Program-made: the position numbers and the translations under genes | Notes under the pieces: model-generated | What the model was told of the DNA's origin: nothing | The model's database searches: none | Seen by the model: the letters and a program-made list of their open reading frames with translations, nothing else | NCBI GenBank assembly: GCA_051294375.1 | Contig: CM119266.1 | Location: 13,332,735 to 13,396,734 of the forward strand | Length of the DNA: 64,000 nucleotides | Direction of reading: 5' to 3' | From: Paraspadella gotoi | Taxonomy: Eukaryota; Animalia; Chaetognatha | Shown: in pieces, positions 138 through 63,334 of the stretch | Position numbering within the stretch: position 1 is the first letter of the stretch | How the letters are laid out: every line of letters begins with the position of its first letter

Positions 138-3100
138 CTGCAGAACTCCTCGACGCAGAGGCAGCCGTCGAAGTCGAGGTCGAACTCTTGCGGCGCCGAC
201 GGCGGAAGGAGGTAAGTTTGACCGGAAGATTCGAACCCGTGACCGCTGTAGGCGAAGAAGGCGTAGCACTGCGGCGACAACGCCTCCACGAAGGCGTGCA
301 TCGCCGCCCGCATCTCCGCCAGATCGAGGTCCATGAGGGACACCACCTGGAGGAGAGAGAGGAAGAGACGAAATGAATAATAATTCGAATTTCCGTCACA
401 ATTCTATTCAACAACGAAAATAATGATAAACATGATGAAAATTCTATTTCGTTTATTTGTTTAATAGTTAGCGAGCTATCTATTAGATAGATGGATAGAT
501 AGAAGATTGATTGATAGATACATGGATTGATTTACTGAAAGTTTACTATTTTCAGTCATTGTTTTACATGACAGATAGTTTCTTGATGGATCGATAGACC
601 AGCTCCACCTCGGAATCTTCCTACCAGGATTGACGTTTCCCTTCTCACCCTCGGTCCTCACCTCGAAACCGAGTTGATTCCTCAACACTTCCGTCAACTT
701 CCTCATATCGTTCTCGACTCCCGTCAGTTTGTCCAGATGGTCGTAGTCTCCGTTGCCGATGAGGAGGGCCACTTTCCCGTGGGCCCATAACGCGCCTGAG
801 GAGGGAGTTGATAATTAGGATCTTGAGAAGGTCGTAATCCTGTTTTGGAACCCAAATTTACAATGAATCATTGATAATTTAAGTACGGATATTTTCTTTT
901 TGACTATTTTTTTTTTTTCAGAACGTAAGTGTCATCCTTTTTTGTTGTTGTCGTCGTTGAGAATGTCGTTGAGGCGCGTCGGAGACAATATTGTGGACAA
1001 TCTCAAAGACTTTAAACTTACCGATGTATATTATTATTAATCATTGTCTATTTGATTCGTGTCTATTTATATTATTGTTTCCCCTTCCAGCCCTGCGCGC
1101 ATCGTGCGTTTATTTCGTCGTCGTCGTCGTTGTTGTTGTCGATTGACGCCACGAGCAAGCTCCTCCAAGTTACCCGTTGCGGCTGGATTGACTTTGAGCC
1201 GATACTTCGTTGGAGAGAGTCTCGCCGAAGACGTTGGAGACGCAGCACTGGTACTTCCCCTGATCCTTCGTCTGAGCGCGTTGGATTTCAAGAAGATTGG
1301 ATTCTTCCCCTTTTGATAAAAAAAATTAATTTTTGGATTTAGAATACTCTCATTAATATTCTAATTAACTACTAACTACCAACCCATTAACCTTTGAGCG
1401 TTTTGCCATCCTTGTGCCATCTGAAAGAGAGTGGACCCAATCCATCGGCGACGCACTTGAGTGGCGAGGCCGTTGACGCTGACGCTAGATCCGAAGGCTG
1501 CTCCACCACCGTCGGGGTGGGCGAATTGGGATATGGGATTCCTGGATGTGGACGGGAGGCTGGGAGAATTTGAATAAGGTAATTAATTCAACAAATAGAC
1601 GGTACATTCAATAGATATAAGGAAATTATTAAATAAGGGAAATTATAAAACCTAAACTCGAAAGTCATGAAAAAGCTTAAAACAATCATACTGTGGCGAA
1701 TCCTAAATTCGCCTCCCGTATAGCTTGGTGAAACTCAGCTCGTCCCATTGGCTTGGACAGCTAAGTACTCGTTCACCAACCGTGAGTTCCGGGTTCAATC
1801 CCATCACGGTCACGCTGGTTAAAGTGTGATGGTGTCGGCATAAACACTCCAGTGGTCACTGCAGGTCCAAAGCCCTGAGCGCCAGCTGTCGGGAGATGCC
1901 TCACACCCCAGGCATCACGCATGTCCCTCCGTTGCCATAATACAAAGAATCTTGACAACCGTCAGCTTTCTTACCATCTCCAAATGCAATTGAGTGCGCG
2001 TAAAGTTTGGCGACGATGAAGCCTCCACTGGGTAAGGGGTAATGGGCGCGGAGTTGGCGTCGGAGAAATTGGCGGAGTAGACGAGGGATTCCAACTTCTC
2101 AAGGTCGATTCCGTCGATGACGCAATCCGACTTTTGACCCAAATACTGTTGGGACATCAAGCAATTTTCGGCGCTCGTTCTGGTGGAAAAAATAGAATGT
2201 ATAAAAATGTAGTAGCAAATGATCATTTGTCAAAAAATGCTGTAAAAACTGTTTTTAAGGTTGTAACCATGGTCTCTGCATTTTTTGCCTTCTTGCCCTT
2301 TTGAGAGACTTTGGAAATAAATAAAGTAAAAATAATAAGAATGTTAAAAAAAATTGTGTCGTCTTTATTACTAGCTCCTGTAATAACTGACGAATCTATT
2401 TAGCCTAATATATTAAAAGAGGATTGAGTATTCACTATGGTTATATAAAGTAACGTAAAACAAAAAGAAATAAAACGGGAGAGAATTACAAATTGTTACT
2501 CGGCCAAAATCACGACTGAAGAATGACAAGCGATCGAGAACTAAAAAGCGTTTTGTTTACAATTCAGCGAAGGCCAATGCTTTTGTAAATAGTAAAGAAC
2601 GAGGCCGAAACGAGAACAACAACTCTTTAATATTCTGACAATTGTTTTATGAAATTGAAATAGATACCAGAAAAAATTGAAAGTGATTGTAATTAAGAAT
2701 AAAGAAAGAAAAAAAGAAAGAAACATTGAAAGAAAGGATCAAATATCAAAGAAAGAAAGAAAGAAATGAAGAAAGAAATAAAGAAAGAAAGACAGACATA
2801 AATAAAGAAAAAAAATAAAGAAATAAATTAAAAAAATAAAGAAAGAAATAAAGAAATAACTAAAAAAAAAAAGAAATAAATAAAGAAATCAAACAATCAA
2901 TCAATCAATAGAAAATTTTCACGAACTAACCGATCAGAGCAGAGCGGGTTCTCCTTCAAATCGAGCAACATCAGCGCGGGAAAGTCTCTCTTGGCGAAGA
3001 CGAGATTCTCAATGAGATTTTCCGTGATGAAGAGGTGAGTGAGAAGCGGCAGCGCCCTCACCGACGCCGGCACCTCCGTCAACCGGTTGCGGCAGAGACC

Positions 3101-3550
3101 CAACTTTTTGAGGAACTGGAAACGAGAGAGATCCGGCGCCGCGCGCAGAGAGTTTGTGCAAAGGGAAAGAAGAGAAAGTTGGGCGAGGCTCTCGTGGGCG
3201 AGACCGTTAGCCAACTCCTCCTGGACGACGTCGTCCACTTCTCCCGTCTCGTCCACCAGGAGGCAGCAGTTGAGCCAGAGTTCACGCACCTCGAGCGGCG
3301 ACGACCTCGACTGCTCCAGTTCGGAGAAGGAGTCGAAGAGTTTGGAGATGTGGCCGCGGGAATAGCTCCACTTGAGGACTCCTTCCTCGTCTAAAGTGAA
3401 AGATGGGGGAAGTTTAAATGAAATAATTGATCATTTGAATAATGGGACAATAGAAACAGTAGAGAACCAATTGCTAAATTAATAACAAAATGACGTCGGT
3501 GATTATTTTTTATTTAGCCGGCGACGAGAACAAAAATACTAATACATCCT

Positions 3551-3593
<43 letters not shown>

Positions 3594-4685
3594 TTCTCTG
3601 TCTTTCTCTCTCTCTCTTTTTTACAAAACCTGGTTCGACGGCGCAAAAATTCATAATCTCCTGCTCCAGCCATCGCTCCAACGCCTGACCCATTTTCTTT
3701 ATCTTTGGTCTTCCCTTCAAATCGAGAGTCAAATGAGTCAAATCTTTGAAGGAACAAATGACGCGCGGAAATTGCGCCAAATCGCAGCCGACGAGTTTTA
3801 AAGTTTTGATCTTGCGCAAAGTTCGTATTTTGTCCGGCAACTGGGATGAAAGAGGAAGACGTTGACCTCTTTAAAGATTCGTTGAGTTGTTGGAGGATTA
3901 CCTAAACATAAATCTCGATATGTATCAGTTATCACGATACCTGTTCCAACTTTGTGTTCGTCAGATCGAGATGTTCCAAGTTTTTCATGTGGACGATGTG
4001 GTTGACAAAGTCGGGATCCAACTTGTTGTTCGCCAGATTCAAGGAGGTTAAATTTGAGAAGGCGTTCTCTTGCGAGTCGAAGGGGGCGTGGCAAATCCTG
4101 TAAGAAAAGAAAACAGTTCGTTGGCGTTAAAAAAAAATATGTTTTTTCTGGTCTCTCCCGCATAGAATTTCGTTTTTTGAATGTTATTTCTGTGCCCCAC
4201 TAAAAGTATCAAATTTTTTTTTTCGATACTCTCTTTCTTAAAGTCAATCTGTACGACAGTACAGTTCGTTGTTTTGTTTATCCAACGAGGATGTTTAAGA
4301 AAAATTAAGAAAGTTTACGCTATGTTGATCGGTCTTTAAAATTAACAATAAAAACACGACTTTAATTCAACATTGTGGGCAGTCCTCGTGCCCTCGTCCT
4401 GTCAAAGAGATATGCTTCGCCTCACTTGTTCCCCGAGAGATCCAAGTCTTTGAGGGAGGACGAAACTTTAAGACTCCGCAACTTCTCGTCGTCGACTTCG
4501 TTGGCGGAGAGATCGAGGCTCCGCAGCGTCGCAAAGTCGACGAGCGATTCCAGCGCCGCAGCCTCCAACCGATTGTTCTGCGCGACAAGCATCTCCACCT
4601 TCTTCTCGTCGAAGGGTCGATTGTGGGCGTCGACTCGCGGGAGAGTCGCGGCGTTCTCGGCGCCGAGGTAGACGGTTCGCGCCAT
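138..4685 (-). CDS. LRR-Ig-paracaspase (MALT1-like peptidase C14 domain) gene; 3' end lies outside the window
   Basis: GT-AG exons 4685-4426, 4097-3941, 3840-3630, 3390-2931 encode LRRs (LRSLDLSANEV, LKDLDLSGNK, LTSLNLANNKL, LEHLDLTNTKL, LKKLGLCRNRL, LMLLDLKENPL). Exon 2179-1975 is LRR-cap-like (..QYLGQKSDCVIDG). Exons ~1559-1392 and ~1309-1174 give one Ig domain (PTVVEQPSD..LKCVADGLGPLSFRWHKDGK..LLEIQRAQTKDQGKYQCCVSNVFGETLS). Exons 795-662 and 346-138 give KVALLIGNGDY..LGFEVVSLMDL..FAYSGHGFE..YLLP..CLCVEEF, colinear with the MALT1 caspase-like domain, with the catalytic His retained. About two 1-nt indels are needed for a continuous frame. Confidence 0.85.
1738..1940 (+). mobile_element. tRNA-headed SINE-like element, copy 1 (contains twister fold)
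   Basis: A-box-like TGGCTTGGACAGCTAA, B-box GGGTTCAATCCC. Colinear with 25865-26080 through to the shared 3' end CCGTTGCCATA. Intronic and antisense to the host gene. Confidence 0.8.
1814..1886 (+). ncRNA. type-P5 twister ribozyme-like fold (T2 G apparently missing)
   Basis: P5 GCTGG/CCAGC; P2 AGTGT/ACACT; L1 GATGG; P1 hairpin TG-TCGG-CA; TAA cleavage motif 1841-1843; P3 AGTG/CACT; G-CAGG-TCCAAAGC-CCTG (P4/L4); T1 CCA:TGG. Confidence 0.75.
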
Positions 4686-4982
4686 TTGGAGAAGGGGGAG
4701 CGGGGAGGAAGGGCTCGAGATGGTTGCCGACTATTTAAATAAGGATTTTTTTTTGTGCTTTTTTAATGATGAATTGACGATTTTCATTTTTGAAGTTTTA
4801 TTTTTAATTGGATATTCGCCAAGTTTCGGGTTCCTCGCGAACTTCAATTAAAAGTTTCAAGTTTCAATGAAAACTAATTCATCGATAAATAAAAACTTGT
4901 AGTTTCGTTATCACTAAAAAGAAACATGAAAATGCGAATCGACAAAGGTTGCTCGTGACGATTCGTGAATCTGAATGGCTGA

Positions 4983-6751: not shown

Positions 6752-24139
<17,388 letters not shown>

Positions 24140-24372: not shown

Positions 24373-26495
24373 TTACAAGTAGACCGATTCGTATTCGCTT
24401 TCCTCTTCGTCATCTTCGTCGTCGTTTTCGTCGTTAATCTTCTGACATTCGACGACGACGACGACTTTTTCTACTCTGAATTCCGTCACGTTTTTGGTCG
24501 CATTCGATTCGCCGTCGCTCGTTTTTAAGATGGCGTCGACTTCAGACGACGGCTCCCGCGAAATCGGAGCCACGTCGTCGATCTTTGACGCCGCGACGCA
24601 GATTTCTGACACGGCGTCGGTTCCGTCGTCGAAGGTGGCGTCGATTTCCATCTCGGCGCCGTTTCTCGACGCGGCGACGCTCCTCTCCGAAACGGCGTCG
24701 GGTTTATCGTCGATTCCGACGGCGACGCTCTCGGACGATTGATCAATAACAGGCTCGTTCGCATCGAGCGCCGACGCTTTTCCGGCAACACTTTCCGGCG
24801 CTTCTTTGGCAAATTGATTAGTAATTGCGCTTCCTTTTTCCAAATTTCCCGGGGAATTCGCAATCTTTCCGGTCCCGTCTCGGCCATCAAAATCGAGATT
24901 TCCCGATTCGGAATCCTGCGATAAAGTCGACGCCACGAAAGAAGCGCCGGATCCGCTCCCGGCGTCGCTCGAGACCGTGGATGAGGACGAAGCGACGGGA
25001 TCACTTCTGTGGCGGATTACATCCGGACGACAACGCGCCAACTGTGAAGGTTCAAGAAGGGGAAAGGTAATGAAAGGGAATTCCAAAGTGTAAAATTAGT
25101 ACATGAACCAGCTACTACGTTTCGGGTAAAATTGCTACTCAAATAGCCACTACAATATAATTAAATAAGCATTTAAACCTAACTGGGATTGACAGACAGG
25201 CCGATATTCCTAGACGAAAGTTGCTTCGCGATTACTCGCGGCGCAATTAAAAAATATAAATGAAGACAAAGAAATTCTATGACTCCTAGCCATATCGTTT
25301 GCCACGTTCAACATTTCTTTTTTTTCAAATTAACTTTCACCTTTTTCAAATGATGCTCAACATAGTCTGGTTGATTGTAGCAACAGGGATGCATCTTGCC
25401 GCAGCATTTGAATGCGGCATCCCAGTCCAAGCAATAAGCGCACCAACAGCAGAAGGAGAACACGGCGAGGACGGAGAGTGGAAGGCCGATGATGAGGAGG
25501 ACGACGAGTGGAGTGACGTCGTTGAGGGGGGACTGCATTGCAAAGGGGGGGTTAAGGAGGGAGGTGAAAGCAAGGGGCTTAATTTTTTTGTTTTAAAACT
25601 AATGCGTTTAAATGGAGTGATCTGGTGACGAGAACGTAACTGATTACTGATTTTCGCTTCCGCTTTACTGATAGCGAATCCTTTCACAAATCCGTGTTTT
25701 TATGATTGTTTACGACGAAGGAAACTTAGTTTTATACGAGGCGACTTCCGAGGATCTGTCGCACGAATATCATTTGCGAAAGTCAAATTGGACCAAACAA
25801 AAAATAGAGATAATAGAATCCTCTGTGGCAGCAAGACTTAAAGCTGCCTCACTGCTGTCCGTCCTCAGCCTCGTCTCAATGGCTGAGCAGGCTAAATCAT
25901 CTCATTCCATCCGTGCGTCCCGGGTTCAATCCCCGGGTATCCCGGTTCTGGCTTAAATGTGACGGTGCCGGTATAAACATGCCAGTGACAGGAGGCGGTC
26001 ACTGAGGGTCCGCATCCCCTACGCCAGTTGGTGAGATACCCCGCGCCCCAGGTATCACAGGCTATCCTCCCGTTGCCATACCTCCCTCATTCTCGCTCAA
26101 AAGACCAAACAACATAATAAAACTTTAAAAATAATAATAATAAAATAATAAAAAAATAATAATAAAACTTTTAAAATAATAATAATAAAATAATAAAAAA
26201 ATAATAATAAAACTTTAAAAATAATAATAATAAAATAATAATAAAATAATAATAAAATAATAAAAAAAAATAATAATAAAACTTTAAAAGACGCAAATTC
26301 GATGGATCCATGGACAAACAAAGTACATCCACCCGGTATGATACCGGAGATTAAATAACCCTGAATATCATCGTCTCCTTCCAGACTCACCCTATCAAAG
26401 CCGACGGTTGTGGAGCCGTTGCTTCCCGACGCCGGGGGATCCCACTTCCAAGCGGGAGGCGGCGGCGGAGACGAAGGACGCCGGTGCAGCTCCAT
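24373..26495 (-). CDS. single-pass membrane protein with Cys-rich juxtamembrane region and acidic Tyr-containing tail
   Basis: Three phase-0 exons, 26495-26391, 25532-25341 and 25041-24373, join in frame: MELHRR..NGST..DR/SPLNDVTPLVVLLIIGLPLSVLAVFSFCCWCAYCLDWDAAFKCCGKMHPCCYNQPDYVEHHLKK/LARCRP...EEESEYESVYL*. Confidence 0.7.
25190..25255 (-). mobile_element. HINE/Helentron-like element, copy C (fragment)
   Basis: Reverse complement TTTTTAATTGCGCCGCGAGTAATCGCGAAGCAACT...CTGTCTGTC matches copies A and B. Confidence 0.5.
25865..26080 (+). mobile_element. tRNA-headed SINE-like element, copy 2 (contains twister fold)
   Basis: A-box TGGCTGAGCAGGCTAA, B-box GGGTTCAATCCC, 3' end CCGTTGCCATA. Homologous to 1738-1940; intronic and antisense to the host gene. 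Confidence 0.8.
25948..26026 (+). ncRNA. type-P5 twister ribozyme-like fold (L4 AAGC mutated to CAT)
   Basis: P5 CTGGC/GCCAG; P2 ATGT/ACAT; L1 GACGG; TAA at 25974-25976; GC; P3 AGTGAC/GTCACT; P4 AGGG/CCCT; T1 CCG:CGG (covaries with copy 1 CCA:TGG). Confidence 0.72.
26110..26290. repeat. AT-rich tandem repeat (~48-nt unit containing AAAACTTTAAAA and (AAT)n)
   Basis: About four imperfect units visible, immediately 3' of SINE copy 2. Confidence 0.8.
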
Positions 26496-28332: not shown

Positions 28333-28844
28333 CTACTTCCACCTACGAAAGAAGTCCTTCATGATCTGCCGGCAGCATTCCCGGAACCGCGACCCGGCAG
28401 CGCAGTAAATGACGAAGTTGACGGCGTGATTGACGGAGTCGAGGACGGTGGCGACGTCGTCGAAGACGGGGCCCAACCTGCGGCCGGAGATGCGTTCGTA
28501 GACGACGGAGACGGTGGCGGGCGCCTTGCAGACGAGAAACCCGCAACACGTGACCACGAGCATGAGGGTCAGCGTGTTCTCGCGTTTATTGCGCGAGGAC
28601 ATCTGGCGGTCGGGTATGGCCGAGCGGGAGGCGCGGGAGGATCGAGCGTCGACCGACCGACGGGCGGAAGCGGAAGCGGAGAATTGTGAGAAGCGGGAGG
28701 AGAAGCGTTGGGCGAAGCTGGATTTCCGACGGCCGTCAGGGCCGGAGGACGGAGAGGGAGGCGGCGCCGATGACAGAGGATTTCTGGTATTTTTAAAATG
28801 CAGTTTTTAAAAATATTCTTTCTTCTCTTTCTATCTCTCTCTCT

Positions 28845-40673: not shown

Positions 40674-41573
40674 CCCTTCTCCTTCCTCATAGTCAAACGA
40701 ATATCTTAATCTGTGAGTGCGAACAAGGCTTTTCTTTTTGTTTTCCCCTGGGAATTATTTCTCTACGTGTCTTTCTTTTCTGCCGTAACTCGTCAATTAG
40801 GAAAACGACAAAGAGTACGTCTTTTATCGTTCAGATTTTTTTTTCCCCAAATTTAAAAGAGACTTACGTTTTCAACTAATTTATTTAAGAGTATTTTAAA
40901 GAGTATTAGGTTTGAAGAAATATTTAGAAAGAACGATTGTTTTGAGTCGTCGCAATTTGTCTTAAATAAAAAAAAAATTGTTAAATTTAATGATAAGAAG
41001 ACGTTATTATCCCGCGAGTTAAACGTCTTTATTTCCTTCCTTCCTTTCCTTCCTTCCTTCCTTCCTTCCTTCCTTCCTTCCTTCCCTTCCTTCCTTCCTG
41101 TCCTTCCCTTCTGACCCTTCTTGCCAGGGTTTTTACTCTCTTATTCTCTTTTTCTTGCCCTCGGGCCTCTGCCATGTTTAAATTGTCCGGTCCTTAGTCC
41201 TATTTCTCGTTCTTTCCATTCCACACCGTTTTTCGTTACCTCACTGCATCCCACGAAGCCAAAGCTCAAATGCTTTTTCCTTCCCTCCCCCCGCCTTCTT
41301 TCCATGACCCTGCTGTTCCCCTCCCTTTTCCCATCCCTGGACCTCGCTCTCTGCTATTTCTTCCCGACCCCCCTTCTCGCTCCCCCTTCGCCCTCCCCCC
41401 AAAAAAGGAAATCTTTCCCAGAGTCCTACAATTTTGTCGCAATTTTCGCCGTCGCAGCCGAAGAAAAGAAAAAAAGACCTCGTTCGTCAACCATGATCTT
41501 TTCTCCTTCCGTTTCTCTCCCTCACTCTCTCTCCACTTAATAATCGTTAAAAAAGCATAGCTTTCCATTTTTT

Positions 41574-41642
<69 letters not shown>

Positions 41643-41646
41643 TTTT

Positions 41647-41736
<90 letters not shown>

Positions 41737-41739
41737 CTC

Positions 41740-42112
<373 letters not shown>

Positions 42113-42537
42113 AGAGTTTAATTAGAAGACATATATATAACGTTGACGGATAGCCCTTTTTTTCCAGGAAAGCTTATTAAAAGACGTTTAACTCGCGGGA
42201 TAATAACGTCTTCTTATCATTAAATTTAACAATTTTTTTTTTTATTTAAGACAAATTGCGACGACTCAAAACAATCGTTCTTTCTAAATATTTCTTCAAA
42301 CCTAATACTCTTTAAAATACTCTTAAATAAATTAGTTGAAAACGTAAGTCTCTTTTTAAATTTGGGGAAAAAAAAAATCTGAACGATAAAAGACGTACTC
42401 TTTGTCGTTTTCCTAATTGACGAGTTACGGCAGAAAAGAAAGACACGTAGAGAAATAATTCCCAGGGGAAAACAAAAAGAAAAGCCTTGTTCGCACTCAC
42501 AGATTAAGATATTCGTTTGACTATGAGGAAGGAGAAG

Positions 42538-43949: not shown

Positions 43950-44796
43950 AAATTGTGCTATCGATTTAGCGAAAGTATCTACGATTCATAAAGTTATTTT
44001 TTACAATTTAAAATCATCGCTGAGTCACCGACAGGAAAAGCGAAAAGGTCATGACAAAATAAAACCACGCCCTCTTGTTAATTCTGAGAAGCGTGTGTTG
44101 ACGTTCGTCGGAAGGCAGAAGAAATCGTCGAGTCTCGTATCGATTTGTCGCTGCCAGAAAAACTCGCCCCGAGGGTAAAACCAATTCTGGAAAACGTCCG
44201 CTCTTCTCTGATTCCTTCCTTTCCTTCCTTCTTTCCTTCCTTCCTTTCCTTCCCTTCCTCCTTCCTTCCTTCCTTCCTTCCTTCTTCCTTCCTTCCTCCT
44301 TCCTTCCTTCCTTGTCCTTCCCTTCTGACCCTTCTTGCCAGGGTTTTTACTCTTCTTATTCTCTTTTTCTTGCCCCTCGGGCCTCTGCCATTGTTTAAAT
44401 TGTCCGGTCCTTAGTCCTATTTCTCGTTCTTTCCATTCCACCAACCGTTTTTCGTTACCTCACTGCATCCCACGAAGCCAAAGCTCAAATGCTTTTTTCC
44501 TTCCCTCCCCCCGCCTTCTTTCCATGACCCTGCTGTTCCCTCCTCTTTTCCCATCCCTGGACCTCGCTCTCTGCTATTTCTTCCCCGACCCCCCTTCTCG
44601 CTCCCCCTTCGCCCTCCCCCCAAAAAAGGAAATCTTTCCCAGAAGTCCTACAATTTGTCGCAATTTTCGCCGTCGCAGCCGAAGAAAAAGAAAAAAAGAC
44701 CTCGTTCGTCAACCATGATCTTTTCTCCTTCCGTTTCTCTCCCTCACTCTCTCTCCACTTAATAATCGTTATTAAAAAGCATAGCTTTCCATTTTT

Positions 44797-44877
<81 letters not shown>

Positions 44878-44893
44878 CTCTTTCATTTTCTTT

Positions 44894-44937
<44 letters not shown>

Positions 44938-45253
44938 CTCTTCTCTCTCTCTCTTCCTCTCATATCTCAATTGCCGGACACGCCTCGGCTCTCGCGAAAC
45001 TCTCCGGCACTCGGGCGCACTCCCGGCAACGGCGAGGGAGAACACTTCCGGGGTCAAACGCTCTCTCCGGCTTCCGGGCCGTGCTTTTTCGGACCGGAAG
45101 TGGGTTAGCGCGTCGCGGCCGCGACGTTCGACGGGATCAGCGGCGCGCGCAGGACGTGACGGAATGCGTCGGTGGCAAAGGGATCCGGGATCCGCGCAGC
45201 GCCTGATGTTAGGAGTTTTCGATCCTCCCGTGGATGATGATGATGATGATGAT

Positions 45254-45289
<36 letters not shown>

Positions 45290-45690
45290 GTGATGATGAT
45301 ATGATGGTGATGATGATAGATGATGATGATTGATGATGATAGAGTTTAATTAGAAGACATATATATAACGTTGACGGATAGCCCTTTTTTTCCAGGAAAG
45401 CTTAATTAGAAGGAAGGAAGGAAGGAATCAGAGAAGAGCGGACGTTTTCCAGAATTGGTTTTACCCTCGGGGCGAGTTTTTCTGGCAGCGACAAATCGAT
45501 ACGAGACTCGACGATTTCTTCTGCCTTCCGACGAACGTCAACCACGCTTCTCAGAATTAACAGAGGGCGTGGTTTTATTTGTCATGACCTTTTCGCTTTT
45601 CCTGTCGGTGACTCAGCGATGATTTTAAATTGTAAAAAAATAACTTATGAATCGTAGATACTTTCGCTAAATCGATAGCACAATTTTCCA
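43950..45690. repeat. second copy of the 1.15 kb spacer (44215-45405) flanked by a ~270-nt inverted repeat (43950-44225 / 45410-45690)
   Basis: 44315-45405 aligns directly to 41100-42175; CCGCTCTTCTCTGATTCC at 44198 mirrors GGAATCAGAGAAGAGCGG at 45424. Confidence 0.95.
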
Positions 45691-51700: not shown

Positions 51701-54700
51701 TCCACAATTTCTGTCGTTGAGCTGATTTCCATAAACATTCGCACAGTCTTCGATTCCTCCCGAATCGTTTGGTTCTCCCAGACGCCAGTGAAAATCGAGC
51801 CTGGCCCGACTGACATCCGGCTCCGTCATCCAGATCCATTCTAAAATAAAGTTAACATTGTAATTGTCTAATATTAATTCTGCAGAGTTTGAACATCATC
51901 ATCATTTTCTTCACTTAGACATTAGACAATACACCAATACTTCATTGAAACTCACGGGCTTTAAAATTTTAAAATTTAAAATTTCGGGGTTCTTTTTCCG
52001 TTACTTTTGCTACTATGGTGGACTAAAATCCACCAACCGTTCGTCAGCGGCCATTGGTGCCGGAGGCAAGTCATTCGCCTCCCAACCCAAAGGTCTGGGG
52101 TTCTTGCCCGGTGGTCGCCTAGCAGTTAAGAGGGACGGGGCGCTTAACCCGCCAGTAACATGGTGTTACAGCCTGATCCGAAGCTCAAGGACTGCTAACG
52201 GTTCTGTCACTAACACATAACAATAATTACTGTCTCTTCACTACTTTTGTTCGCATATTAAGGAATGAGCTACTGGGCGGAACAACCTTTACGGTTACAC
52301 CACGGCAATCTTCAAAAAGTTCGGGTCGGGCAGCTTTGCCCATGACATGAATCCAAGACTCTCAAATCGGACCATATACATTATAATTATGAAAGATTTT
52401 CACCCTTCCCCTACTTTTCGTCTCGCATTCAACTCGTCCTCTTCTCTCGATCTTCCTCCCCCACCCCCACCCCCACCCCCCTACGGCCCCTCGGTCTCAC
52501 CGCCTCTATCGTTCTGTCTGCCCCCGACCCAAAACGTGTATTCCTCCGTCGATCCGAACGCCTCGTATTTCGCGTTGGCCAAGAATCCGCCCTCGTTTCT
52601 GCAGGTGATCATCGCCTCGTCCCATGACATTGGGTCTCTTCGAAGTTCAAATCTCCGAGGTCCGGATGTAATTGGTTCGATGGGCGTCGAGGACCGCGAC
52701 GTCGGACTTTCTCCGGACGCCGGGTCGGTGGCGTCGTAGAGAATCCCGTAGTCCGTTCCGGCGTGGGCTTGTTGAAAATAAAAGGGACGTGAGGCGAAGG
52801 CGATTGGGAGGAAGAGAGAAAGAAACGCTACCATGCGGCGGTAGAATTTCTTAGTCGGCATCTGGAAGGAAGGCGTGCCTGTTCGCGAGGGCGAGATTAT
52901 AAAATTATTTTCGGTTGATGGAATTTAAAACTGACGATACATAGTATGTATAGTATGTATAGTATTACATACGAAGTAAATGAAGTATATTGTCCTCGTT
53001 GATATTGAAAAATCAATATTTTCCTGGTTGTATTATCGTTTTATAAAAAGAGAGATAAGGATGCGGCCATACCTACTTTTTACAATTTTCTTTCTTTATA
53101 TTTACGCTATAAAATCAACGAAATTGAAGGTAGAAAAACGTTTCGACAAACGAGTCGCTGCGAACGAAGACTGATAAAAAAAATTTGAGATGAAACAAAC
53201 AAATCGATAAGAAATTTTCAACTCGGATTAAATTGCTTAGTATTTCCTTGAAACTTGAACCAAACAATGAATAACGTTAAAATTATAAAGCAGAAGTGAT
53301 TTTAAAACACAAGTTTTTATTTACTTTACCTTATTGCAATTTGTATTGTTACTTTATATTATAACTTATATTTTGAAATTGTTACAATCAAAACGGGCAT
53401 TTTGTAGTATATTTGTATATTATATTTTGGCGGCCAGTACTTCTCTTTTAGGATTTCACCGTTTGTCTTTTGTTTTATTTTCAGAAACGACGCGGAAAAA
53501 CCTTCGCGTTCCTCCCTACTTCGAAGACTACATTGATTTGCGGAAAGAATTTGCGCTATGTTACCGGACGGAGGAGTCGCTTTCGACAAAGGAGATGCTA
53601 CAATGTAAATCACGGTTGACAACCAAATTAAAAAAACTTATCGTTTTTTATTTCATTTAGCTAGCGTGAAAGTTTTTACTTTTTTAGTGAGCTGTCAATG
53701 CCACTCCTTTTATTAGAAGCTATTCTCAGATGTGATTAATTTTATAAAAAATTCTTTCGATTCATTTTTCTTTCATAAACTTTTCTTTTTAATATTCCAT
53801 TTCCATAGCTAATTAAAGATTCATTTCTCAAACTAATTCAATAATTTAACTAATCTACCTACTTCATATAACTTAAGACAAGTAAAGAAAAAAAATCAAA
53901 ATATACGTCTTTTTTTCCTCATTCTTTTTTTTATCTATCGTACTTGGGAAAGAATGTTTATTCTCAGTTATTGGATGATCATTCCATTTCTGTGTTCGTT
54001 CTCAATGACAGTTCCTCAAATTCGATAAGCTTAAACGTAATGGCAATTTGTCCGTACTCCGCTGACCTTTAGAAGCAATCAGCCCGCGACATATCGGATA
54101 AAAACTGACTTTTTTTTACTGTTTTTCGTTTTGTACTTATTTCCCCCGAATCCAAAAGGAACCAAATTAGAAAAAATTGCAAGCCTCCGCCCTTTACGAA
54201 CACGGGATTTGACAGATTCTCGAAAGAACCGATATAATGGGCAAATAAAAGTGAGTTCCATTGTCAACTCGAACTCGGTTCTTTCCCGATCAAACAGAAT
54301 GGGGCACCGGGGCAAACACGAATCTTTTTTTTTTTTTTAATTTCTCACAGAAAGACCAAATGAAGAAGAAGAAGAAGAAAGTGGTTAAAGAAAAAAAAAA
54401 GTAAAGAGTTTTTAAAAGACGTGAAAGCCAAATTTTGAAAAAAAGAAAAAAAAGGGAAAAGATAAGGCACCTCTCTCTCTCTCTCACATTAGTAGTAGTG
54501 GTGCAAAGGTGGGGCCTATCTCGCCGACTCTTCCCCTTCGGCCCTCGATGTAAAAGAGCAAACACTCTCTTCCCTCGTCTTAACAGTGTGAGAGAGTGAG
54601 TTAGTTGTATGTAATATATTGCTGGGGGTTAAAAAAAAAAAAAAGCAGTGAAAAGACAGAAAATATATTTTGGATCTTATAACGCGTCGTTCTCGTCCCA

Positions 54701-57653: not shown

Positions 57654-60600
57654 ACCGAAAGAGGGGCTCTTTTCCCTCAGACAACGGCTTCTATAAAGCT
57701 TTTTCTTTTGACGCTGAAGCGTTTCGCTGAACCGATGCTCCTCTGGCCGAGAGCGAGAGCGAGAGAGTTGAACCTGTGGCGACGGCGGTGAAGCGAGAGA
57801 ATTCGTCAATCGTCGTTAGACGAATCCGGGGACGAAGAGACAAGAGTTCACAACCGATTCACCGACTCTCACCGAAGAAGAGGAAAAAAAAATTATAATT
57901 GCCTTCATTCGAACTTATTTGAGAGTTGGAGAAAAAGTGTGTGGACGCGCGCGCGGACTAATTACGCAAATATAAAACTATAAAAGGTCTTTTTTTTGTA
58001 AGAAAAAGGGTCTTTGTCATCATTAAAAAAAAAATCTTCACCTCTACTGTCACACACAAAAAAGAACGCGAGATCACTCCAAACACACAAAAAAAAATTA
58101 TATATAATTTTTTTTTCTTTTTCCTTCATTCCCTCTTTTTGTCTCCGTCTCCCTCATTTCTTCTCCGACGATGTCTTCGTGCTACGCCGCCGACGGCGCC
58201 AATTCGACGCCCTCTTATAAAAAATCAGGCATCGACGAGGAGACGAAGGCGTTTCTCGACCGAGGCGACGGCAACCAAGTCATCGTGCGCATGCGCGGTC
58301 TTCCTTTCGACACGACAACGCGACAAATAGTGAGTAACCATCACGTTAAACTGCGAATCTCATAGCTTTCCTGTTTTGATATGTACCGCGTTTAGCTTTT
58401 GATGCTCGTGTTAGCCTATTTTATATATGTATCGCCCTTTACTCGCTTGATTCAATTAATTTCTCGATGCTTTTCTTCCATAAAGTTATAGTTAAAGGCT
58501 GAGACTGTATGACTGGCAATGTGCATTGTGCACTGGCTTTAACTTTTTTGATGGAAGAAAGGCCGGAAACTTTTCTCAAGTTTTTCATTGTTTTTTGTTA
58601 TGCCAAAATCTTGCGTTTTGAAAATAAAGAACTTTATAGCTATAAATCTTTACAAAACCATATAAAATTTTTAAGATTATTTTAAGATTATTTTCCTTAG
58701 AGAATTGACAAAGTTTTTGTTTGCAACTAATTTTATTTCAATTGAACATTGATTATTTTCCTTTAATCAAAAAGTAATTTTGTTATTTTGGAAACGCAAA
58801 TTTTAATTGTGAAAGTGAACGTTTCTCCTTTATAGCATCAATTGAAGTTAATTTTTAAAATTATCCCGAAAAACCGAGTTGAAATTGTAAAATTATCCCT
58901 CTTTCGATATTTTCTGCCTTTCACTACGAAAGCGGTCGGAAAGAACCGTAAAGTCCAAGACGTGTCACTATGAGAGGATCCGGACTTCGAGGTTTGATCA
59001 CAACTTGGTTAAAAAAATACGAAAAGGGGAGGGTTTGGCCGGTGTTGGGCGGATTGGGCTGAGGTGTTGGATGCTGTTGAAACATCCAGGTGGTTGTCGC
59101 TAAAAGGTTTAACCTTCAGAATAGCGTGTCGTTTCGAGCGGACAATAGTGCCAAATTTTAAAAATTATTGTACAATCCCAAAAATATATGTGGTCCCAAA
59201 GTCCAAAAACTTTTAAGAAACTTCTATAAAATATAACATTTTTTCACATTGGATAAAATTCCGTTAATAATAATTTATCATTTAAATAGCAATTATTCGT
59301 GATATTTGTCCGCTAGAAACGTTTTTACCAAGGCACCTTTTGGGAAATCGGCGTAATCGGTTCTGCGTAATTTTTCAGGTTGTGAGGAAAAAAGCTTGCC
59401 TATTGAAAGCAATGAAAGGGATGGTTCTAGGTTTAAATATTGTCACATATGCTTTTTCTAGCTATGAATTTTTTTTAAGTATTTTCTGATCTGAAAAGAT
59501 AGCATTAACGTTTGTTGCGTGAAGGTGATATTTTGAAAAGAAAATAAATTTTCAAAGCTAAATGGATTTTAAGAAATCGAAATCCATCACTCATACTTTA
59601 TTCATACACATACTAATCTAATTCATGAAACATAAACATTAAATCCTTATATTACGTACAACTTTTTACTAATTATCAAGTATTATGAGTGGCAAGCCGT
59701 AATTTTTTTTTTTTACATAGCTAGAATCTGAAATCAAAGTTTATTTTTTGTTAGGTGTTTTTTTCTTCCCCTTCAGCATATGTTACGGGTCATTTCTGGA
59801 TGTAGATTTAGATTCATCGATACCTCGTAATTATAGACGCTTGGTACTCGTCCTATTAATAAGGACTGGGCCTCTTCGGTTGTTTCGTTTTTTTGTTTTT
59901 TTTCGATCCAATAAAAATGAATTTGGGAGGGCATTGAAAAGGTTCTGAGGTTTTTTTTTTTTTTTTTTTTTTGCGTTTTAAAACTTTAGACAAAATTCCC
60001 ACGATTTCAAAATTGTTTCGTTATTAATTTGTTTTTAAAAAGGTTAAATAAGATTTAAAAATGTCCGCGCTGGTAATTTTGTCACATACCGGATCTTAAT
60101 TTTTTTTTTTTTTTTTACAAAACGCCTTAGCTATCATCTCTACTTGGTCGTCGGTTCTATATTTACATAGTTACCAATCCACAGCTTTTTTCTTCAAGAC
60201 TTGATTGCCGAACTAAAAAAAAAAAGTCACAGCACTCGATCCTGGATCAAAAATTGTCTCCTTTTTTGTTCCCGAGGCGAAAACTAAGAGATCGCGAGAG
60301 CTAAGTCTCTCACTAATTAAATTTTCTCCTTTACCCCACGATCTCCCCCCCTCCCCCTTACCCGTTCGCCCGCGACCTCCCCCCCTTTCAACCGTCCCAC
60401 TCCAGAATGAGTTCTTTGGCGAGGGCGACGGCGCCACGCAAGTGTTGGACGGAGAAGATGGCGTTTTGTTCGTCCGCATGGGCGACGGGCGCGCCACCGG
60501 TGACGCCTTCGTCATGTTCGAGAATGAAACGGAGGCTGAGTTAGCGTTGCGACGTAACAAGGAGACGATCGGCACGAGATACATCGAACTCTTTCGATCC

Positions 60601-61614
60601 ACTACGGCCGAAGTCCAGCAGGTCTGTGATGTGGTGCGGGAAGGACAATGATATTGACAGCGTCGGTTACTGTTTTTTAACTCAATTTTAAGTCATTCTG
60701 TGTCACATTGAAAGCTTGCAGGGTCTTGCTAAGAGGGATGGAGTGACTCAACCCTCCATTGTCTGTCAAAAGTCAGGAGTCAGGAGTTTTTATGTGTTGG
60801 GGACATAGTTTCCTTAATTTTTACAATATCTTAAACATTATTTGTATACAATTTTTTATTTGACCTTTTTATTTCTCGTGTATCTTCATATTTCTACCCG
60901 GGGTGAAATCAGTTCGAACGAAAGATTTCGAACGAAAGATTTCGAATCATGAAAAACTCACGCTTCGCGGAATTTCTTCAATTCCCGCTTTTTATTGACC
61001 CAGGTGTGCAAACGGTCCTCGCAAACTGTTAAAACGACTGTGACAACTCGCGACTCCAATCACAATTTGATTCCAGCTTCCGTTTCATGTGAGAATTATG
61101 AACCGAATCTTAGCTAATTTTTAATCAGTATTTTTACTGTTAAGTTAGTATTATATATCCTTTTTTGCCCTCAACCTACACCTCGCCGCAGCGCCGAGTC
61201 TGCCCCTGACGTCTACCATCCCCTCGATGCTGCCGCCGCCGATGCCGCCGCCCAGCACCGTGATGTCCGCCGTCAATGCCATGACGCCCTCTCAGGCGCC
61301 TTACCTCATTCCGGGCATCGCTAACCCGAGTGAGTGATAGTTTCTCTTTCTTTAAAAGGCTTTACGTTACCTTAACTGACCCTTCTCGAACTTATCCCAC
61401 CCTCAAAAGTCGCCCTGTTGCCTCCGACCTTGGCCGTGCCCACAATCCTCGCAACAGCGACCCACAAAAAGGACTGCATTCGGTTGCGCGGTCTGCCCTA
61501 CGAGGCCAAGATCGAGCATATCTTGGAGTTTCTCGGGATCGTTCACTCTTCTCACATCCTCCCTCAAGGCGTCCACATGGTCTTTAACGCGCAGGTCGGT
61601 CTAAAATCGAATTT

Positions 61615-61664
<50 letters not shown>

Positions 61665-63334
61665 CGTTGCTCCTCGATGGCTGTAAAATAATTAGTATCC
61701 TTCTAAAGTTCAACAACCGTTAATAGTATATATGCGGAAGAATTTTTCAATTCTTCACTAATCGCCCGCAGGGAACCCCCTCCGGAGAGGCCTTTATCCA
61801 AATGGACTCGGAACATTCGGCCGCCAAAACCGTCGAACAAAAACATTGCAAAAACATGTGCGTCAAACAGAAGCGACGCTACATCGAGGTCATGCAATGT
61901 TCCGTCGACGACATGAACAACGTGCTCGCTGGTGAGAGACATTTATCCTTTTATAAACTCTGAAAAAAATTAGGACAATAATGACGACAAATTCTCTCTT
62001 CTTTTTCCCAGGCGCGTCGGCAAAGCATCAAGCCTCGCAGGCGGCCGCCGCGGCAGCCGCGGCAGCCGCTGCCGCTCTGTCAATGCAACTTCCTGGCGCG
62101 CAGCTGCCTTCCGCCTCCAACGCTCTCTACCCGATTACTTCGACGGCGGGCTTCGATCACCTCTATTTCATGGCTGGAGCGGGTTCTGCTCCACCGCCGC
62201 CGCCGGCCCGCTCCAACGCTCCAGTCGGGCCGGGGGCCTCTTACGCTCAACCGACGGGGCTCATCGCGCCTCCCCCGCCGTCTATGACGCCCACGCAACT
62301 CAATCAGGCTTACATGCAAAGCGGTACGATGAAACCAAAATAAATGTCATTCATTTGTTCACGTTCATACCAATTTCCCCTCCTCCCCCCCCCAAAAAAA
62401 AAACCTCAAAAATTAGGCCCTCTTTCCGCCCGTATCCGCAGTATCAGTATTCGCAGCCGGCGCCGTATTACGGCATGTCCGTGCCCGGCGAGCAACGTTG
62501 GGCGCGGCGCCACCAAGCGTCTACGGCGCGTCGTCCCCCGCAGTCGCCGCTCTCGCCGCCGGCCAATTTGATGTACCCGGCGTCGTTGGGCGCTACGTCG
62601 CAGCGAAGCCCCGCGTGGCGCATCCTTCGGGTGCCGCGGCGGCCGCGGCCGCTAACGGCGCCTACTTTCCTCCCGTCTTTTACTACTATCCATCGCCGCC
62701 CGTGTCGCCATCGGCGTCTTATTACGGTCATCAGTACCCCGCTCAATCTTCCACCGTTCAAGGTCACTGCGGGGGGTTGCTAGGGGGAAGGGATGGGTTG
62801 TTCGAAAAGATCCGCGCTCCGCTTGGACCATAGTCTGGGCCTCGGTTAATTCCTTTTATCAATTAATAACTGAACTTTTATTATGCTTATCTTTCCTTTC
62901 TTTTACCATTTACAGAAACTTTAAAAAAAAATTACAGAATCAATGTTTTCGCAATTTTTGACCTTCGCGATTTGACCTCGACGCATTCTATTCTTCCTCC
63001 TCCTCTTCCTCTTCATCTTTGCCTCTTCATTGCATTGAACTAAAAATCCTTTCTCTCGTTTCTCATTGGATTTACAAAAACTCGTGAGAATGAGACATGA
63101 TTAAAATCTGCTTAAACTATAACTTTTTTTACTTCCCAGGATCCCCAACTGTCTCTTCCCTACCGGCTCTGCCCGCTCCGCCAGGAGTTGGGCAGCCCTT
63201 GTCTTCCGGTTCCTCGTCGACGGCAGGTAAAGGACCGTAAAATTAAACCTTACCCTAACCCTACCCTTTAAGTTTTCGTGTCACTAATTCTTTGAATTTT
63301 ATTTTCAGTGGAAGATATCAAGCATTCATATTGA
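48738..63334 (+). CDS. ESRP1/2 (fus): epithelial splicing regulatory protein / fusilli orthologue (DnaQ-like N-terminal domain + 3 qRRMs)
   Basis: In-frame exons 48738-48881 (LGSDETEIV), 49381-49561, 51180-51260 ([10 protein letters not shown]), 53485-53604 (DLRKEF), 55443-55532, 55888-55942, 56080-56187 (VRARGLPWQ), 56467-56645 ([24 protein letters not shown]), 58229-58329 (VRMRGLPF), 60406-60621 ([24 protein letters not shown]), ~61004-61088, ~61192-61329, ~61411-61594 ([19 protein letters not shown]), 61772-61932 ([14 protein letters not shown]), ~62012-62323, ~62418-62762 (YYPSPPVSP; indels), ~63140-63226, 63309-63334. Confidence 0.95.
51665..52861 (-). CDS. secreted single-domain C-type lectin with EPN motif, nested antisense in an ESRP intron
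   Basis: Exon 52861 (or ATG 52834)-52501 has a signal-like [14 protein letters not shown] and [24 protein letters not shown] phase-1 GT-AG splice joins exon 51840-51665: [58 protein letters not shown]. All four core CTLD Cys are present. Confidence 0.9.
52044..52220 (+). mobile_element. tRNA-headed SINE-like element, copy 3 (divergent subfamily; contains twister fold)
   Basis: TCAGC start, A-box-like TGGTGCCGGAGGCAA, B-box-like GGGTTCTTGCCC, then a twister fold at a similar offset to copies 1-2. Confidence 0.7.
52120..52197 (+). ncRNA. type-P5 twister ribozyme fold, catalytic core intact
   Basis: P5 TAGCAGT/ACTGCTA; P2 G(A)GG/CCC; L1 GACGG; TAA at 52145-52147; GC (T2) 52151-52152; P3 GTAACA/TGTTAC; G-CCTGA-TCCGAAGC-TCAAGG; T1 CCG:CGG and T2 GC:GC can both form. 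Confidence 0.8.
60730..60757 (+). mobile_element. truncated relic of the copy-3-type twister element
   Basis: TAAGAGGGATGGAGTGACTCAACCCTCC aligns with copy 3 TAAGAGGGACGGGGCGCTTAACCCGCC; P3/P4 are missing and TAA has become CAA. Confidence 0.4.

Follow-up and report, generated by a model that had tools for sequence, protein, structure and literature searches.

A leucine-rich repeat array ahead of Ig and MALT1-type caspase-like domains in one gene of the chaetognath Paraspadella gotoi

The stretch analysed here (the window) comprises 64,000 nucleotides (nt) of Paraspadella gotoi contig CM119266.1, and all coordinates below are window positions. On its minus strand, from 4685 to 138, lies a gene of which nine exons are visible, with GT–AG ends and a GC content of 0.45–0.60 (vs. 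0.22–0.45 in the introns), and whose product combines a leucine-rich repeat (LRR) array, an Ig domain and a MALT1-type caspase-like domain; that these parts belong to a single fusion protein is, in our judgement, almost certain. Briefly, exon 1 (4426–4685; residues 1–86) starts at the ATG at 4685, encodes no signal peptide and holds LRRs at residues 54 and 78; exon 2 (3941–4097; residues 87–139) holds LRRs at residues 103 and 127; exon 3 (3630–3840; residues 140–209) has one LRR at residue 150, followed by a degenerate repeat or insert; and exon 4 (2931–3390; residues 210–362) has five, at residues 244, 281, 303, 326 and 349, before the cap begins. Exon 5 (1975–2179; residues 363–431), with a cap-like motif and a Ser/Pro-rich linker, ends in the phase-0 donor that bridges the LRR and Ig-caspase halves. 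Exon 6 (1392–1559; residues 432–488) encodes the rest of the linker and the first half of the Ig domain (Cys468, Trp480), exon 7 (1174–1309; residues 489–533) the second half (Cys510), exon 8 (662–795; residues 534–578) the start of the paracaspase domain (KVALLIGN), and exon 9 (138–346; residues 579–648) its VVSL..DL, SGHG (with the catalytic His614) and CLCV motifs, after which the gene runs on past the window.

LRR families of Pfam match exons 1 to 4 (best E-values: 1.3e-5, 1.4e-6, 4.6e-4 and 7.8e-7, respectively), and the ten motifs located above follow the LxxLxLxxN/CxL pattern, with an irregular stretch at residues ~170–240 within the LRR region. The cap that the initial annotation had proposed is visible by eye as an NPLC...IDG-like motif after the LRRs, but exon 5 alone has no Pfam match; an LRR_9 match in Pfam reaches E 0.0095. 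The Ser/Pro-rich linker (residues ~396–445) is an exposed-looking stretch of ~50 residues between the two halves, behind which a single I-set Ig domain spans residues ~446–531 (Ig/I-set matches on exons 6 and 7: E 0.015 and 2.2e-5) and the caspase domain begins at residue 541. Neighbours in the protein-cluster atlas are generic cytosolic LRR and Peptidase_C14 clusters, while an AlphaFold prediction of exon 4 alone, computed with no alignment, had a pLDDT (predicted local distance difference test) of 44 and was not used. Judged by hydropathy over residues 1–648 rather than by a dedicated predictor, the protein has no hydrophobic segment (top 19-residue Kyte–Doolittle mean: 1.14; top 9-residue mean within the first 40 residues: 0.73) and hence no evident signal peptide or transmembrane helix. 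A profile built from the N-termini of 12 type 1 paracaspases, which matches dozens of relatives, detects no death domain, whether run against the protein (E up to 10) or against the window translated in six frames (E up to 0.5). Likewise, the nine exons have no Pfam match to a NACHT domain, the protein beginning with its LRR region, nor to an autoprocessing domain, and there is no second copy of the gene within the window. Altogether, Pfam matches, motif count and structural matches agree with the initial annotation on about ten LRRs, one Ig domain and a MALT1-type caspase domain, as do hydropathy and the death-domain profile on the missing signal peptide, transmembrane helix and death domain.

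Only the N-terminal half of the caspase domain falls within the window. Exon 8 matches Peptidase_C14 (PF00656; E 5.6e-8); exon 9 has no Pfam match, but of its 13 PDB matches the top 10 all belong to MALT1 (E 1e-8 to 2.9e-7), so that the proposed colinearity with MALT1 (KVALLIGN, VVSL.DL, GHG, CLCV) is borne out. The catalytic His614 is kept in its SGHG context, as is the Asp aligned with the MALT1-type LVD motif, while the arginine of the caspase-1 RRTG motif is absent. We take the LVD-motif Asp and the RRTG arginine to be P1-specificity residues, and on these residues the protease is predicted to be arginine-specific, as paracaspases are (PMC11121540). A two-residue insertion precedes CLCV. 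The loose end of the contig described below reads LQ-ALQDKPTA and so adds eight codons past the window (ALQDKPTA), up to codon 656, which fit the helix before the catalytic strand. In all 12 full-length relatives checked, a D-x-C-R motif follows 49–51 residues after the His, with the Cys at exactly 49 in 11 of them, the spacing also found in human MALT1 (H415 and C464; PMC4713714). Given this spacing and the two-residue insertion, the catalytic Cys would fall near codon 665, about nine codons past the readable sequence. Beyond exon 9 the transcript continues for ~2,080 nt, which leaves room for the stretch of 260–320 residues found after the Cys in 11 of the 12 full-length relatives and could accommodate a C-terminal MALT1-type Ig domain.

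The initial annotation had described one compact exon chain with Ig exons invisible among the open reading frames. The exons do lie where it placed them on the minus strand, and the Ig exons do occur, in pieces, in the list of stop-to-stop reading frames; the chain, however, is out of frame in the assembled window. Exons 1–5 splice in frame into 431 residues, but a stop is met once exon 6 is joined to exon 5. We compared the window with contigs of seven out of nine sequencing runs (three studies, one organism; runs X2 and X4 left out). Relative to these, the window is short of four bases in exon 6 (behind 1460, 1486 and 1531; all four runs compared there), has one surplus base in exon 7 (1199; all three runs covering the site) and is short of one base close to the 3′ limit of exon 9 (behind 142; seen in runs X1 and X7). 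Two more indels are intronic, which brings the total to seven small differences within 1.5 kb (142–1601), against none among the unique pieces listed for 1892–4800; three further DNA runs show seven gap letters across the same span. With the five coding indel corrections applied, the nine exons form 648 stop-free codons. Since runs of a sample otherwise nearly identical to the window letter for letter also disagree with it there, the indels are assembly errors and not marks of a pseudogene, a reading that was dropped as the contigs lack the frameshifts. Also dropped were alternative splice models (an acceptor at 840, a donor at 1021, a hidden micro-exon in intron 5), as the contig uses 795, 1174, 1309, 1392 and 1559. 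The interval 142–1601 is a locally poor stretch of the assembly, and other frameshifts in the same genome assembly warrant comparison with reads. With five coding indel errors, automatic annotation would split or drop the gene, which may partly explain its absence from protein databases.

The link between the LRR exon at 2179–1975 and the Ig and caspase exons, which the initial annotation had left to be established, is provided by contig 25 of run X9 (4,346 nt), in which they are joined as one spliced sequence. This contig was placed on eight of the nine exons, at positions that match the corrected model within the few bases that are ambiguous at the joints (window 4425–4800, 3631–3840, 2931–3391, 1975–2179, 1391–1560, 1173–1308, 659–794 and 143–343 on contig positions 3766–4141, 3400–3609, 2939–3399, 2734–2938, 2561–2734, 2426–2560, 2290–2425 and 2089–2289, respectively). 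Exon 2 is not among the contig pieces listed, and the gap left fits its 157 nt. Three joints are CT..AC, i.e., GT–AG on the minus strand, and the contig's loose end behind exon 6 corresponds to the 3′ end of exon 5. Because such joints are seen in none of the three DNA runs compared over the same stretch, and because X9 has zero depth in unique intron bins, X9 is in all likelihood spliced RNA, even though this status is a guess and none of the nine runs is recorded as RNA. On the 5′ side, contig and genome run colinearly from the ATG to 4800, and the contig has ~205 more leader bases further 5′. The leader (4686–4800, minus strand) is unspliced over that stretch and has an in-frame stop at 4733–4731, 45 bases before the ATG, so that translation starts at the ATG at 4685 and the X9 transcript has no coding exon, hence no death domain, ahead of it. 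An upstream reading frame of 18 codons (4787–4731, minus strand), in the same frame as the main one, ends 45 bases before the ATG within the coverage of the spliced contig.

A HMMER scan with exon 9 (67 residues, near the edge of detection) against 1.84 billion representatives of 50%-identity clusters gave 126 matches. None of these caspase-domain relatives carries LRRs, as far as the best five Pfam families per protein and profile and pairwise searches with the query's own LRRs can tell, many of them being single-exon fragments whose N-termini are not visible. Long animal-type relatives are mostly of the death domain/Ig type, and others are bacterial-like multi-domain proteins. The two best relatives (P0001 and P0002, on ENA contigs of 623 and 501 bases; 58–59% identity to exon 9) are single-exon fragments whose boundaries coincide with those of the query exon, and they group with the query in one clade (support: 99/97). 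The Ig and caspase domains align as a single colinear block with type 1 (MALT1-like) paracaspases; in six of the seven top-listed three-Ig proteins, the query Ig has its highest score with the Ig next to the caspase domain; and the caspase half obtains its top single-domain scores against animal MALT1-like proteins (84 bits). A first tree (127 rows, quick method) had spurious long branches beside the query. In the best tree from a narrower selection (113 columns; 73 hand-picked relatives and the query, 53 left out; group labels taken from the first tree and domain lists), the query falls among animal-type sequences (100/98) on a fairly long branch (0.66). As a bacterial-like placement is not rejected either (see the AU test below), descent from type 1 paracaspases would rest on pairwise scores and the adjoining Ig domain, not on the tree. 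Word-based searches among longer proteins, which make for weak negatives, confirmed none of 29 candidates for exon 9 and none of eight for exon 8, and for exon 4 one of 1,249, a generic algal LRR protein; among metagenome contigs, none of 317 pattern matches was confirmed, and an exact 28-base pattern had no match. Among the relatives, a spider paracaspase (P0099, KAG8190070.1) has a weak TIR_2 match (E 1.4e-5) and no Ig or death-domain match before its caspase domain, possibly another N-terminal swap, and three others (P0020, P0055 and P0108) have a death domain and no Ig match.

Type 1 paracaspases consist of a death domain, Ig and caspase domains, and type 2 of the caspase domain alone (PMC5978004, 10.1101/046789). 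On its domain content the P. gotoi protein belongs to neither, as it has no death domain and yet has Ig and LRRs. With MALT1/PCASP1 (DD-Ig-Ig-caspase-Ig, where DD is the death domain), which we take to be MEROPS C14B, it shares the Ig-caspase block and the KVALLIGN, VVSL.DL, GHG (His) and CLCV motifs; it differs in its lack of a death domain, in having one N-terminal Ig instead of two or three, and in the ~430 residues of LRRs, cap and linker in front. With type 2 it shares the missing death domain, to which it adds Ig and LRRs (PMC5978004). Searches of the open-access literature listed no paper with an LRR-paracaspase in its title or abstract opening; "LRR" appears solely as LRRK1 in the accessible parts of PMC5978004 and 10.1101/046789, and those of PMC3879445 and PMC3501461 hold nothing on such a fusion.

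Proteins of comparable logic are nevertheless known. Amphioxus LRRs-caspase and TNFR-caspase proteins with a QACXG motif were described in 2008 as shortcuts from recognition to apoptosis (PMC2575513). As in the P. gotoi protein, a receptor-type module is fused to a caspase-fold protease with a proposed bypass of adaptors, but, compared by description, theirs are true caspases with QACXG, whereas the visible half of the P. gotoi domain is of MALT1 type and keeps its Ig. The MALT1-type half and the absence of the RRTG arginine argue against membership among these true-caspase fusions, the QACXG position itself lying beyond the window. The claim of a novel receptor architecture should therefore be toned down: the arrangement was not found among the 126 relatives, but the proposed shortcut logic had already been put forward for LRR-caspase proteins of amphioxus, albeit with true caspases. 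The IAP2-MALT1 protein of MALT lymphoma likewise places the C-terminal part of MALT1 behind a foreign N-terminus; there, however, a somatic translocation supplies a self-oligomerising IAP2 and the product is constitutive, while P. gotoi has a germ-line gene with LRRs (PMC4713714). In NLRs and PIDD1-type LRR proteins, the protease is a separate molecule, brought in by NACHT and death-fold domains. They too set a cytosolic LRR array upstream of caspase-family activation, in contrast with the P. gotoi protein, in which neither NACHT nor a death fold was detected. Finally, unlike TLRs and extracellular LRR-Ig receptors, the protein lacks, by hydropathy, a signal peptide and a transmembrane helix.

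The listed variants differ between the two halves of the gene, with the caveat that all counts are among variants listed, the tables being incomplete and some counted differences unlisted. Out of 12 exonic variants, the four in the Ig and caspase exons are all synonymous (chance 0.003 if neutral), which supports a working Ig-protease half, whereas six of the eight in LRR exons 4–5 change the residue (Fisher's exact test vs. the Ig/caspase exons: one-sided 0.03, two-sided 0.06); two of these six sit in the Ser/Pro-rich linker. The LRR pattern is a hint, not evidence, of diversifying selection.

In MALT1, the death domain docks on BCL10 and dimerisation is key to activation (PMC6168461), and the domain organisation and dimerisation of MALT1 are further described along with IAP2-MALT1, which auto-oligomerises and is active independently of upstream signals (PMC4713714). 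Since MALT1 is switched on by being brought together, and since LRRs here stand where the type 1 death domain is found, before the Ig and caspase-like domains, the simplest model is a one-component cytosolic switch, to which we give a probability of roughly 45%. Under this model, the N-terminus of a type 1 paracaspase would have been replaced; binding of a ligand or partner by the LRRs would cluster the protein; and clustering would dimerise and activate the predicted arginine-specific protease, with no need for BCL10. An intact Cys near codon 665, the LRR-driven clustering and an immune trigger are parts of the model that we infer. Mechanistic precedents for it exist in PMC6168461, PMC4713714 and PMC2575513. 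As for the cytosolic sensor-protease bypassing adaptors that was originally proposed, the architecture, the single transcript and the missing death domain all agree with it, but the immune-sensor and adaptor-bypass roles are plausible only, the best LRR matches being non-immune scaffolds; an immune-sensor role is at present a matter of inference only. A bolder version, in which this gene together with P0001 and P0002 would form a lineage-wide family of immune receptors that use fast-varying LRRs to sense a cytosolic microbial or damage signal and directly fire an arginine-specific protease, collapsing CARD-CC/BCL10/MALT1 into one chain, strikes us as doubtful.

Several results weigh against the one-component switch or parts of it. 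The splice joints are backed by a single RNA-type run (X9), the catalytic Cys itself is out of view, and any C-terminal Ig domain lies beyond the window, unseen. In the approximately unbiased (AU) test, a bacterial-like placement of the query was not rejected (p 0.57), and the tree bearing it had the higher likelihood. Independence from an adaptor is not certain either, since the Ig domains of MALT1 also contribute to BCL10 binding (PMC4713714, PMC6168461), and there is no NACHT-like oligomerisation module that would bring about clustering. Among solved structures, exon 4 matches SHOC2 and LRRD1 best, which are non-immune cytosolic scaffolds. Finally, six nonsynonymous variants out of eight equal the neutral expectation (0.77), so that relaxed constraint fits as well as diversification, while all eight LRR-exon variants are on one contig haplotype and exons 1 and 3 show no differences in X9.

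These scaffold matches favour the strongest of the alternatives, in which the fusion is an active protease and the LRRs, as in SHOC2 or SDS22, form a constitutive adaptor for substrate choice or location, with no sensing of microbes. The generic cytosolic LRR clusters among the atlas neighbours point the same way, as do the cap-like motif, which by eye is of the type seen in intracellular LRR proteins (LRR_9), the single copy in the window and the persistence of paracaspases in animals without NF-kB (PMC5978004). The variants speak against it, those listed in LRR exons 4–5 mostly changing residues and none doing so in the protease exons, a pattern that a conserved scaffold would be less likely to show, albeit in small numbers, and we see this explanation as possible though well short of even odds. 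A catalytically dead pseudo-paracaspase, whose role would be to bind or block a canonical MALT1-like partner as decoy or scaffold, would suit the position of the Cys beyond view, the fairly long query branch and the two-residue insertion before CLCV; as His614 and the surrounding motifs are kept, the variants listed there are synonymous and D-x-C-R is present in all the full-length relatives checked, we consider it unlikely. Less probable again is a tripwire-like protein in which the LRR half would inhibit the protease or act as bait until the linker is cleaved or degraded and the Ig-protease half set free: the linker is exposed-looking and holds the two residue-changing variants mentioned above, but MALT1-type domains need bringing together and not release alone (PMC6168461), and no autoprocessing domain was detected. 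Lastly, an artefact or read-through, with two neighbouring genes linked by contig chimerism or in a rarely made transcript, or else a pseudogene, could appeal to the frameshifted window, to the single RNA-type run of guessed status and to the fact that a contig over two genes is no proof of one transcript, but is very improbable, as the frameshifts are absent from the contigs in every covering run, the exon 5–6 join is in frame with strong GT and AG sites and no untranslated region or stop between, both gene halves are covered in the DNA contigs at similar depth and in assembled order, and X9 has no depth in unique intron bins.

If the one-component switch is right, the shortcut idea from amphioxus would extend from apoptotic caspases to a signalling protease. 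A germ-line LRR-Ig-paracaspase would represent a third arrangement beside types 1 and 2, the two described in animals (PMC5978004). It would also show in a natural setting whether inputs other than death-fold filaments can gate a MALT1-type protease, a question that has until now arisen chiefly with the IAP2-MALT1 cancer fusion. Its substrates could reveal what invertebrate paracaspases do.

Several introns of the gene contain repeats. Intron 5, which joins the LRR and Ig-caspase halves, carries at 1688–1942 (plus strand, antisense to the gene) a very high-copy repeat (summed depth up to 2.6e5 vs. ~80 in exons) with a tRNA B-box-like motif seen by eye and a 69% copy at 25864–26080; its copy number and B-box-like motif suggest that it is probably a short interspersed element (SINE). 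Within it, 1825–1877 gives a weak twister-ribozyme match (21.7 bits, below the family cut-off of 37.6; E 0.1 and 0.009), with folding no better than in shuffles (z -0.36). Raised depth also marks multi-copy repeats at 2388–2640 (intron 4) and 975–1100 (intron 7), with no second copy of either in the window.

Elsewhere in the window, 15498–23142 (plus strand) holds the exons of a long coiled-coil protein and, after them, low-complexity reading frames rich in Gln, Gly/Ala and Pro; the only Pfam matches there are weak ones of coiled-coil type. Two near-duplicate blocks (41115–42173 and 44014–45345), which share their reading-frame text and contain long GA and CAT microsatellites, would be either a tandem repeat element or an assembly duplication. 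Weak matches further point to a rhodopsin-type G-protein-coupled receptor-like exon at 28333–28806 (minus strand; 7tm_1, E 0.0017), to a C-type lectin-like exon at 52481–52924 (minus strand; E 0.03) and to RNA recognition motif protein-like exons at 60217–62833 (plus strand; E 0.003), the last of which presumably resemble ESRP/fusilli.

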